Assembly: GCA_035760845.1 (NCBI GenBank)
Contig: DASTSD010000036.1
Coordinates: 1-24,456 of the forward strand
DNA from: Candidatus Saccharimonadales bacterium
Lineage (GTDB): Bacteria; Patescibacteriota; Saccharimonadia; Saccharimonadales; Saccharimonadaceae
Reading direction: 5' to 3'
Length of the DNA stretch: 24,456 nt
A program made the translations under genes and the position numbers. Numbering within the stretch: the first letter of the stretch is position 1; each line of letters begins with the position of its first letter. The notes beneath the pieces were generated by a model. It was not told the origin of the DNA. It did no database searches and saw only the letters and a program-made list of their open reading frames with translations. Positions 21,268 to 24,455 of this stretch are shown piece by piece.

Positions 21268-21717
21268 GTGAGCGCAAAATACAAGATCGGTGACAGTCGG
21301 GTTATCGAATCACGAGAGGCCGCCGATGGTATGACGATTCGCCGCCGCCGCGAATCGCTCGACGGTAAAACCCGTTTTACCACATACGAACGGATCGAAC
21401 GCCCTAACCTGGCGGTTATCAAAAAAGATAGCTCACGCGAACTGTTCGACCGCGATAAGCTGGCAACTGCCGTCAAACGCTCGGTCGGCAAGTTCTTTAC
21501 CTCGGAACTAGAGGTGGAAGAAATCATCAACAATGTCGAAGACAAGCTCTACGACCTTGGCGAGTCAGAAGTGACTTCGCGTCAGATCGGCGACCTCGTC
21601 CTTGACGAGCTAGCGGTCCGAAATGAAGTCGCGTACGTGCGTTTTGCCAGTGTCTACCACGAGTTCAAGACCCTCGACGAGTTCGAAGAAATCCTCAAAC
21701 AACGGCGCAAAGGGTAG
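21268..21717 (+). CDS. nrdR: Transcriptional repressor NrdR (lacks Zn-ribbon cysteines)
   Basis: VIESR, IRRRRE, RFTTYER, ATP-cone VIKKD...FDRDKL, VAYVRFASVY. Confidence 0.93.
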   Translation: MSAKYKIGDSRVIESREAADGMTIRRRRESLDGKTRFTTYERIERPNLAVIKKDSSRELFDRDKLATAVKRSVGKFFTSELEVEEIINNVEDKLYDLGESEVTSRQIGDLVLDELAVRNEVAYVRFASVYHEFKTLDEFEEILKQRRKG

Positions 21718-22584: not shown

Positions 22585-22866
22585 ATGACCGAGCGAGAAT
22601 CCTCACGTCGCCACGATAGCGAACCAACGGTAGAAAAGGGCATCGACAGGGAAGTGCTATTCGCAAAACTCGTCAGCCCGGAACTGGTGGAAAAGTTTGA
22701 TTTTGAAGTAAGCGAGGAGGACCTAGCGTGGGCCGCCGAGGAGCTTCTTACCGACGATAACGTCGAGCTTATGGAATGGCTGGCGTCACTCGCTATAGCA
22801 AACGGCGCCGACCACGACGAGTTTTTTGCGTGGCTGGGTATTGAAACCGAGCCCGAAACAGAGTAA
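22585..22866 (+). CDS. Acidic hypothetical protein
   Basis: 93-aa ORF starting directly after VKOR stop. Confidence 0.6.
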   Translation: MTERESSRRHDSEPTVEKGIDREVLFAKLVSPELVEKFDFEVSEEDLAWAAEELLTDDNVELMEWLASLAIANGADHDEFFAWLGIETEPETE

Positions 22867-22894
22867 AATACACACCAGAAACACTCCTCGCGTG

Positions 22895-23070
22895 AGGAAT
22901 AGCGGCCATCACCCGCGAACGTTCCAGGAAGAAAGGGAAATCCCGAGTAGAACCTGGCGCACCACGGCGTTACAGTGACAAACAAGTGCTAAGAAGAACC
23001 TCTTTTTAGAAGCTGGATGGTACCGTCCGCGTATGCGGATTCCAGCATCTAACAAGAGGTTTTTGTGTTT
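22895..23070 (+). ncRNA. T-box riboswitch, Ile (AUC specifier), ultrashort Stem I type
   Basis: Stem I GCGG-ccAUCac-CCGC (22902-22916); Stem II CCAGG-AAGAA...GAGUAGAA-CCUGG (22924-22957); IIA/B CGC..GCGUUA..GUG; antiterminator GCUGGA-UGGUACC-GUCCGC.GCGGAU-UCCAGC (23012-23046); upstream of the ileS operon. Confidence 0.88.
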
Positions 23071-23085
23071 TAAGAAAGGACCGCC

Positions 23086-23610
23086 ATGCAAGATATTATT
23101 ATTCGCGATACGACCGCCGACGACCTATTAGCGCTGCGGACGACGCATGGTCAGTCATGGCGCGACACCTACCCGAACGAGGCCGAGGGCGTCTCGCGCG
23201 AATGGGTTGAAGCGCGGACGGCGGGGTGGATCACACCCGAAGGGATCGAAAATTCCAAAGAACACGTAAAGGATATTTACGGTCATCCAAACCATCTTCA
23301 CAAAATAGCGGTTGAAGGCGACAAGGTTGTCGGTGTGGTCCATGTAGCAAAAACCCCCGAAAAACAGCACCTTCATGCGCTATACATCGCAAAAGAATAT
23401 TACGGCAGCGGCCTCGCCCAGCGACTTATGGAGATAGGACTGGCGTGGGCTGACCCGCATCGGCCGATTGACCTGCAGGTCGCTACCTACAACGAACGGG
23501 CCAAGGCTTTCTACCGCAAATACGGATTCGAAGAAGTACCGGGCACCGAAGAAAAATTCGCCGAAACCATACCAGTCGTCACCATGGAAAGAAAAGGAGA
23601 GTCAGCATGA
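23086..23610 (+). CDS. GNAT family N-acetyltransferase
   Basis: LHALYIAKEYYGSGLAQRL (AcCoA-binding motif A), LQVATYNERAKAFYRKYGF; AAAGGA RBS. Confidence 0.92.
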   Translation: MQDIIIRDTTADDLLALRTTHGQSWRDTYPNEAEGVSREWVEARTAGWITPEGIENSKEHVKDIYGHPNHLHKIAVEGDKVVGVVHVAKTPEKQHLHALYIAKEYYGSGLAQRLMEIGLAWADPHRPIDLQVATYNERAKAFYRKYGFEEVPGTEEKFAETIPVVTMERKGESA

Positions 23611-24455
23611 AATTCAAAGGAAACACCCGCCGCCGCGCACTCGAGTACGAAAAAGACCTCGTCGTCCAGTGGAAAAAGAACAAGACATTTGAAAAATCCG
23701 TCGAGCAGCGACCAAAAGAGGACAGCTACGTTTTTTACGACGGCCCTCCATTCATCACCGGCGTACCGCACCACGGAACGCTCCTTAGCTCGATCGTAAA
23801 AGACGCCATTCCGCGCTACCAGACGATGCACGGCAAGCGTGTCGAGCGCGTGTGGGGTTGGGACTGCCACGGCCTGCCTGCCGAGGTATTTACCGAAAAG
23901 AAACTCGGCATCAAAGACCGCCGCGACATCGGTACCAAAATCAGCCTTGAAGAATACATCCTGACCTGCCGCGACAACATGGTGCAAACCGGCAACCTAT
24001 GGGAAGACACCATCGACCGCATCGGCCGTTGGGTCGACTTTAAGGGCGCCTACAAAACCATGGACAAAGACTACATGGAAAGTGTCTGGTGGGCGTTCAA
24101 AACCCTGTACGAAAAGGGGAAGATCTACGAAGGCGAGCGCGTGCTCATGTATTGTACCCGCGACGCGACGCCGCTTTCGAAGGCCGAGGTCACGATGGAT
24201 GCCGGCGCCTACCAAGACGTCACCGATCCGAGCGTGTTCGTGAAATTCAAGCTGACTGATAGCGACGCGTTCCTTTTGGCTTGGACGACCACGCCGTGGA
24301 CGCTGCCAGCAAACACCGCTGTCGCCGTGAACAAAAACTTTGACTATGTCGAAGTGGAACAGGCCGGCCAAAAGCTGATCTTGGCAAAAGATTTGCTCGA
24401 GAAGGTGATGCAAGACGAAAAGCACCAGCCGCTTGAATACAAAGTTGTCCGCGAA
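23607..24455 (+). CDS. ileS: Isoleucyl-tRNA synthetase, type 2; 3' truncated by window
   Basis: Manual translation from ATG 23607 (AAGGAG RBS 23594-23599): FYDGPPFITGVPHHGT, GWDCHGLPAE, RIGRWVDF, YMESVWW, AWTTTPWTLPAN. Confidence 0.96.
   Translation, partial: MKFKGNTRRRALEYEKDLVVQWKKNKTFEKSVEQRPKEDSYVFYDGPPFITGVPHHGTLLSSIVKDAIPRYQTMHGKRVERVWGWDCHGLPAEVFTEKKLGIKDRRDIGTKISLEEYILTCRDNMVQTGNLWEDTIDRIGRWVDFKGAYKTMDKDYMESVWWAFKTLYEKGKIYEGERVLMYCTRDATPLSKAEVTMDAGAYQDVTDPSVFVKFKLTDSDAFLLAWTTTPWTLPANTAVAVNKNFDYVEVEQAGQKLILAKDLLEKVMQDEKHQPLEYKVVRE

Follow-up and report, generated by a model that had tools for sequence, protein, structure and literature searches.

T-boxes are a model for how one RNA senses another RNA and the aminoacylation of the RNA that it senses, and to our knowledge their switch has always been drawn as an antiterminator set against a terminator. 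The locus described here raises the question of whether such a sensor can be wired in another way. It lies in a stretch of 24,456 nucleotides from a Candidatus Saccharimonadales bacterium (assembly GCA_035760845.1, contig DASTSD010000036.1), hereafter the window, in which the leader, the elements just upstream of it and the genes behind it are on the forward (+) strand. An initial annotation had placed at 22895-23070 an Ile-specific T-box with an ultrashort Stem I, an architecture known from actinobacterial ileS leaders, and had called its expression platform unusual, leaving open whether control is transcriptional or translational; as for its origin, it had suggested either transfer with a type-2 ileS from Actinobacteria or a wider distribution than recognized. 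Hence, we ask what this leader reads, how it could switch the genes behind it, and whether it was acquired from elsewhere.

The locus and its operon

The source genome belongs to the Saccharibacteria, within the candidate phyla radiation (CPR), and among the 80 loci whose IleS is most similar, nearly all bear the label Candidatus Saccharibacteria or Saccharimonadia. The leader occupies the gap between a 93-aa open reading frame, which ends at 22866, and the gene of a 174-aa GNAT acetyltransferase, which starts at 23086. The T-box elements initially assigned to it all lie within 22896-23073, in or adjoining the span first given (22895-23070), but that span omits two features further upstream. 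One is a promoter-like site, TTGAAA-17 nt-TAAAAT (22841-22869), predicted by a consensus scan with 10 of 12 matches and implying a transcript start at about 22876; a -10-like box occurs at a similar distance in most relatives. The other is a predicted 5′-terminal hairpin, UCCUC-GCGU-GAGGA (22885-22898), seen in the fold and ending 2-3 nt before the flank of Stem I. A hairpin of different sequence stands at the equivalent place in about two-thirds of 59 relatives, while in the remaining third the -10 box lies just 11-14 nt upstream and the hairpin is absent. This hairpin may cap and stabilize the mRNA, or it may stack on the very small Stem I.

Downstream of the leader, a Shine-Dalgarno sequence, AAGAAAGGA (23072-23080), precedes the ATG of the first gene at 23086. 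This gene (23086-23610) encodes the GNAT acetyltransferase (Pfam Acetyltransf_10, _1 and _7, E 1e-12 to 1e-14), and its stop codon overlaps the start of ileS at 23607. IleS is represented in the window by its N-terminal 283 aa (23607-24455; PF00133, E 3e-55), truncated at the contig end, and the rest of the gene is found on contig C60, where the latter half of the catalytic domain is encoded together with DUF5915. The IleS fragment is 75-83% identical to the IleS at the 80 loci. No specific GNAT subfamily matched in solved structures, NCBIfam or PADLOC, and the idea of a tRNA-acetylating toxin or defence protein was dropped on the same searches. NCBIfam does contain a family of IleS proteins in which an acetyltransferase domain is fused to the N-terminus (NF040702, ileS_w_GNAT); the GNAT of the window does not match it, and the existence of the family means that the GNAT-IleS association recurs elsewhere.

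The slot between leader and ileS appears as a variable cargo site across relatives. Of 62 relatives, 46 have a leader-ileS gap shorter than 100 nt and 16 a gap longer than 130 nt, and inside 15 of these 16 long gaps there is an open reading frame of 78-197 aa, whose product is a GNAT like that of the window (3 loci), a GDSL lipase, a NUDIX hydrolase, a cupin, or a protein of no family (L047, L076, L017, L033, L036, L039 and L042 are among the relatives with such cargo). All of these cargo genes would come under tRNA-Ile control. Particular to this window are the GNAT gene placed first under the leader and the 5′ hairpin. The window sequence occurs in soil, rhizosphere and compost metagenomes; four matching RNA or possibly-RNA runs that were aligned are contigs of relatives, from which transcript ends cannot be read, so that they bear on termination in neither direction. 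An NrdR homologue with an ATP-cone and an NrdR-type N-terminal ribbon (Pfam) is encoded further upstream, at 21268-21717.

Detection and conservation of the leader

The Rfam T-box model, RF00230, bears out the assignment in part. In a whole-genome search it matches 22877-23047 at E 3e-5, but with 29.7 bits, under the gathering score of 93 bits, at which no RF00230 match was found in the window. On a 221-nt slice the match has 21.6 bits (E 0.004) and aligns Stem II, IIA/B, Stem III and the antiterminator with their counterparts in the model. When 501 nt were scanned by E-value the element was not detected, and given the matches in the slice and in the genome search this is a filter effect and not absence. 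The low score is to be expected, since the long Stem I of the model has no counterpart in the leader, and an element that scores under the Rfam threshold is thus missed by standard annotation. A second weak RF00230 match in the genome (contig C129) falls inside a 606-aa reading frame and was rejected as chance.

Among the 80 related ileS loci, nhmmer found the leader at 62, and a covariance model based on 46 of the 62 leaders placed it before ileS in 75 of the 80 related Saccharibacteria species or loci; at least two of the five missed loci have almost no DNA upstream of ileS. In a 76-sequence alignment fitted to the covariance model, 95.7% of cells hold standard pairs compared to 72.0% in shuffles, two-sided changes occur in 33 of 37 pairs, and the covariation score is 0.704 against 0.261 for shuffled alignments, with none of 500 shuffles as high and slid controls at 0.05-0.15. 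An unfitted MAFFT alignment analyzed with RNAalifold recovers the same helices, 32 of the 37 pairs being compensated. In one complete genome (CP064992.1, locus L025, 2501-5390), the reading frame of ileS breaks off after 465 aa and the remainder follows in a different frame; the break is a frameshift or an assembly error, and the T-box leader is retained 781 nt upstream.

Decoding module

The 5′ part of the leader contains each of the elements that the initial annotation had read from the letters, with coordinates and pairings that proved correct throughout. Stem I (22902-22916) is an ultrashort helix of 4 bp, GCGG (22902-22905) with CCGC (22913-22916), closed by a 7-nt apical loop CCAUCAC; the long Stem I and elbow platform of a canonical T-box are missing. 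The loop holds the specifier AUC (22908-22910) followed by a conserved purine, A, and AUCA is unchanged across the 46 leaders. All four pairs of Stem I covary in the 76-sequence alignment (e.g., CG:46, UA:30). Stem II (22924-22957) is formed by CCAGG (22924-22928) and CCUGG (22953-22957) and encloses the conserved purine elements AAGAAA (22929-22934) and GAGUAGAA (22945-22952), the AAGAA/AGUA elements of the initial reading. All 8 of its helix pairs covary, the A, U and G positions of the AGUAGA element are invariant or near-invariant in the 46 leaders, and the stem aligns with Stem II of RF00230.

Directly 3′ of Stem II lie helix IIA, CGC (22958-22960) with GCG (22967-22969), and the proposed pseudoknot IIB, CAC (22963-22965) with GUG (22975-22977). 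For helices of this kind we used a cognate test, in which the pairing of each sequence with its own partner strand is compared with its pairing to the partners of other sequences. The cognate loop and partner of IIB pair at -3.92 kcal/mol, compared to -1.97 kcal/mol for mixed pairs, and none of 5000 permutations reached the observed value. Indeed, the partners vary together among relatives, as CCAC/GUGG, CCAG/CUGG and CGCU/AGCG.

The leader matches tRNA-Ile at both sites that a T-box would contact. The genome encodes one tRNA-Ile(GAU), with a 3′ end of ...GCCC-A-CCA (A73-CCA), and both predicted contacts are complementary, AUC to the GAU anticodon and the bulge UGGU, described below, to the ACCA end. 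AUC and its following purine thus stand in the loop of a Stem I that has ileS downstream, and the parts of the leader together with the agreement of AUC and ileS support its identification as an Ile-specific T-box of the ultrashort-Stem-I architecture in a CPR genome.

Discriminator

The 3′ half of the sensor follows the RRRxG-Stem III-AA motif of T-box discriminators, here AAGUG-hairpin-AA (22984-23011), with flanks that are invariant or nearly so. The purine string AAGUG (22984-22988) forms the 5′ flank of Stem III, a hairpin at 22989-23009 that folds in all 46 leaders, and the AA linker (23010-23011) follows. In each of the 46 leaders Stem III ends exactly two A's before A1, and its pairs show compensated changes from the base upward.

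Helix A1 pairs 23012-23017 with 23041-23046 and helix A2 pairs 23025-23030 with 23035-23040; both covary. Between them, directly 3′ of the 5′ strand of A1, lies the bulge UGGUACC (23018-23024), which had been recognized from the start and is invariant in relatives. The string GAUGG.A.C is likewise unchanged in the 46 leaders. The closing pair of A2, G23025-U23040, is a G-U in only 36 of 76 relatives, as in the window. A 7-nt bulge between A1 and A2 with UGGN at its 5′ edge is what T-boxes in general possess.

A probable terminator nested around A1/A2

The expression platform is indeed unusual: the putative terminator encloses an intact A1/A2 and takes over a strand of Stem III. Its extension, also listed in the initial annotation along with the U-rich run, pairs AACCUCUU (22997-23004) with AAGAGGUU (23054-23061) and UUAGA (23006-23010) with UCUAA (23048-23052). 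The 5′ strand as a whole (22997-23010) consists of the loop of Stem III, its 3′ strand and the first A of the linker, and in the minimum-energy fold it pairs with the 3′ strand UCUAA-C-AAGAGGUU (23048-23061). A1/A2 with an open 7-nt bulge is retained, and A1 is extended downwards, in the minimum-energy fold, in the centroid and in the consensus of the 46 leaders. The run UUUGUGUUUU (23062-23071) lies directly 3′ of this extended hairpin, a long structure that a mismatch and a 1x1 loop interrupt in addition to the 7-nt bulge. For the leader of the window, the terminator state is the more stable one by about 13 kcal/mol (-38.1 vs. -25.0).

Stem III and the extension are mutually exclusive, both using 22997-23010, and each is kept by compensatory change. 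Of the 14 pairs of the extension, 12 show two-sided changes, and a 7-pair core is paired in 97% of the 76-sequence alignment. In the cognate test, the shared strand pairs with its own terminator 3′ strand at -14.79 kcal/mol against -7.82 for mixed pairs, and with its own Stem III 5′ strand at -7.16 against -4.55 kcal/mol, none of 2000 permutations reaching the observed value in either case; when the Stem III 5′ strand was paired with the terminator 3′ strand as a control, the test gave no significant result. Selection thus acts on two helices that exclude each other, a pattern that marks a switch.

The long helix might instead be a structural clamp or an element of processing or stability, such as a site for a double-strand RNase, that forms in both states while sensing proceeds without competition from Stem III. 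This would agree with the extended hairpin being the thermodynamic ground state with A1/A2 intact inside it, and with the fact that some related leaders without Stem III still keep the nested helix. We consider it unlikely, since the extension and Stem III, sharing 22997-23010, cannot coexist and compensatory change in both is expected only if both folds are used; moreover, the U-run fits an intrinsic terminator. At least five U's within 8 nt follow the covarying stem in 45 of the 46 leaders (mean 6.4).

The same U-run bears on whether the leader acts on translation, as in Actinobacteria, where an alternative fold would hide the Shine-Dalgarno sequence and the U-run would be incidental. The ultrashort-Stem-I ileS T-boxes studied to date do act on translation (PMC7583486), and two guanines of the Shine-Dalgarno sequence pair with the 5′ strand of Stem I in the minimum-energy fold of the window. 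However, this sequence lies beyond the hairpin and U-run and has an unpaired probability of 0.9-1.0 at 7 of 9 positions, its region varies in sequence and spacing among relatives, and no conserved helix takes it in, so that the sequestrator helix of the actinobacterial leaders has no equivalent here. With the U-run placed right after a covarying stem in nearly every leader, we regard translational control as very unlikely.

A third arrangement would be the conventional one, in which the 3′ strands of A1/A2 re-pair downstream into a terminator. Although this is the wiring of all characterized transcriptional T-boxes, where the A1/A2 3′ strands turn into the 5′ strand of the terminator (PMC7583486), no downstream complement to these strands (GCGGAUUCCAGC) was found, the 3′ part taken by itself has a weak fold (-9.4 kcal/mol) that does not adjoin the U-run, and the 46-leader consensus fold holds A1/A2 within the terminator. 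The terminator 5′ strand is thus not drawn from the A1/A2 3′ strands, and a conventional switch is extremely improbable here. The question that the initial annotation left undecided can accordingly be narrowed: the comparative evidence favours transcription termination, and control is most likely transcriptional, through a predicted terminator that would compete with Stem III rather than with the antiterminator.

Agreement of specifier and gene across Patescibacteria

In a sample of 151 genomes drawn across the phylum Patescibacteria, the covariance model matches 51, some with 2-4 copies. Ten downstream genes were checked: GUC precedes valS in seven cases and AUC precedes ileS in two, and the tenth leader carries AAC before aspS. 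The 20 Patescibacteria leaders that were viewed lie before ileS, valS or aspS, and their loop triplets agree with the gene that follows. As the loop triplet tracks the downstream synthetase in this check, which is independent of the lineage of the window, the apical triplet behaves as a specifier, and the wider distribution that had been offered as an alternative to transfer is the favoured explanation. In the AAC leader (L107, G027:C12) a compact T-box with the Asn codon in its apical loop lies upstream of aspS, which would fit a non-discriminating AspRS serving tRNA-Asn.

These other compact T-boxes resemble the leader in the decoding module, in a bulge that reads UGGUACC or UGGUAAC, and in having a U-run and a helix that encloses A1/A2; in a few, a separate hairpin lies downstream. 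Several ileS and valS leaders from other Patescibacteria families (L096, L097, L098, L099, L111, L113 and L122) seemingly lack Stem III and retain the decoding module and the bulged A1/A2, and in such leaders the nested terminator forms between the unpaired linker on the 5′ side of A1 and the strand that precedes the U-run. Since they keep the nested terminator, the captured element may in general be the linker strand and not the Stem III helix, and the general principle may be the capture of whatever the tRNA-bound discriminator needs.

Such conservation also weighs on the idea that the element is inverted or decayed, that is, that tRNA stabilizes the apex of the terminator and lowers expression, or that the leader is a non-functional relic. 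It draws on the fact that the tRNA-binding helix belongs to the terminator hairpin. Yet making less IleS when tRNA-Ile is uncharged would be physiologically senseless, the functional motifs are invariant or covarying over 76 sequences, and specifier and gene agree phylum-wide; we give this idea hardly any weight.

Type of IleS and origin of the leader

The IleS under this leader is of type 2. The full-length IleS of a relative has the PF19302 (DUF5915) C-terminus, lacks PF06827 (the IleRS zinc finger), and scores highly against models of mupirocin-resistant IleRS; in the source genome itself, PF19302 is found on C60 and PF06827 has no match. DUF5915 is present in IleS-sized frames of 143 of the 151 sampled Patescibacteria, whereas the type-1 marker PF06827 was found in no IleS-sized frame across this sample, its matches there lying nearly all in frames of about 265-357 aa, with two shorter. 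The type-2 and type-1 controls (Thermus, Deinococcus, Bacteroides, Corynebacterium and four archaea) behave as expected.

The suggestion of transfer with a type-2 ileS from Actinobacteria is not supported by this distribution. Type-2 IleS and compact T-boxes are phylum-wide, which argues against a recent pick-up by Saccharibacteria from actinobacterial hosts, and the leader is near-universal in Saccharibacteria, so that we see no sign of a transfer that was recent or came from a host. The leaders and IleS relatives compared here come from Patescibacteria, and an ancient transfer or link with Actinobacteria is possible. The matches listed in a protein search with a Saccharibacteria IleS were all Saccharibacteria-like, at 77% identity or more. 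One of them, an IleS labelled Streptomyces caniscabiei (P0063), is 79% identical to the Saccharibacteria query and lies on a contig of 957,675 nt, which is probably the whole genome of a Saccharibacteria epibiont filed inside a Streptomyces assembly.

Proposed mechanism

We consider it probable that this is a tRNA-Ile-sensing T-box leader controlling the GNAT-ileS operon by transcription attenuation, with a nested terminator competing with Stem III, a reading built on sequence comparison and folding. From conserved, covarying parts, from two helices that exclude each other, and from a U-run with an unpaired Shine-Dalgarno sequence beyond it, we infer tRNA binding, an order of folding and termination itself as follows. 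The apical AUC, backed by Stem II and the IIA/B pseudoknot, would read the GAU anticodon, and the UGGU of the bulge would pair with the ACCA 3′ end of tRNA-Ile. Stem III and A1/A2 would be the first folds to form co-transcriptionally. The bulged A1/A2 helix would be retained in both states, its downward extension of A1 making the terminator. When uncharged tRNA-Ile docks its 3′ end, Stem III would be held on the stack of A1/A2 and tRNA and would resist invasion by the late 3′ strand (23048-23061) until the polymerase has cleared the U-run, allowing read-through into the operon. If the tRNA is charged or absent, Stem III would not be held, the more stable extended hairpin would displace it, and transcription would stop.

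[quoted passage not shown] The wiring of the window fits a switch that reads this docking of Stem III. Furthermore, an antiterminator without Stem III showed no appreciable tRNA binding (reviewed in PMC7583486). Several points speak against the proposal. In the view of the review, terminator-type T-boxes as a rule depend on a long Stem I, whose elbow platform captures tRNA fast (PMC7583486), and this leader has neither. The Rfam score is far under the gathering score, the predicted terminator is long and interrupted, the G-U that closes A2 is shared by only 36 of 76 relatives, and some leaders of other Patescibacteria combine a nested terminator with the lack of Stem III. With somewhat less confidence than in the attenuation itself, we favour the view that Patescibacteria hold a distinct "nested terminator" class of T-boxes, in which charging is read through docking of Stem III or the linker and not through the stability of A1, and for which a 4-bp Stem I suffices co-transcriptionally.

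Comparison with known T-boxes

The terminator-type wiring proposed here, a terminator that wraps an intact tRNA-end-binding helix and takes over Stem III, was not described in the T-box literature searched. No paper on T-boxes in Saccharibacteria, Patescibacteria or the candidate phyla radiation came up in full-text searches, and the short-Stem-I model of TBDB has been searched in Actinobacteria reference genomes only (PMC7778990). Since these leaders fall under the Rfam threshold, tRNA-dependent regulation in ultra-small, host-dependent bacteria has been missed by annotation, and the leader appears to be among the few recognizable regulatory RNAs in the reduced genomes of Patescibacteria.

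The canonical transcriptional T-box (Bacillus subtilis tyrS and glyQS, RF00230) resembles the leader in reading tRNA at the anticodon and the NCCA end, in a bulge at the 5′ edge by A1, in an off state that is a more stable terminator with a U-run, and in regulating an aminoacyl-tRNA synthetase. It differs in its long Stem I, its arm leading from the K-turn to the platform, and its elbow contact, all of which the leader lacks. The leader moreover builds the 5′ strand of its terminator from Stem III where the canonical switch uses the 3′ strands of A1/A2, and for this reason its terminator encloses the antiterminator. The other compact T-boxes of Patescibacteria differ from this leader in that several lack Stem III and in their GUC and AAC specifiers.

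The nearest relative in build is the actinobacterial ileS T-box (M. tuberculosis and M. smegmatis, "class II" of TBDB), a likeness of architecture as published. Both carry AUC in the apical loop of a very short, platform-less Stem I, followed by Stem II with S-turn purines, the IIA/B pseudoknot, and a discriminator of RRRxG-Stem III-AA, A1, UGGN bulge and A2, and both regulate a type-2 ileS; in the actinobacterial leader, Stem III docking reports the charging state (PMC12647780). They differ in that the platform of the Saccharibacteria leader is predicted to be an intrinsic terminator and not a Shine-Dalgarno sequestrator, that its predicted off state unfolds Stem III and not A1/A2, that its host is a member of the Patescibacteria, and that the first gene it regulates is a GNAT. 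If our reading is true, a kinetic switch of transcription can work with an ultrashort Stem I, which would contradict the working rule that terminator-type T-boxes require a long Stem I, and this conserved natural variant would give a direct genetic readout of Stem III docking, the very step that depends on charging in the single-molecule work on M. tuberculosis.
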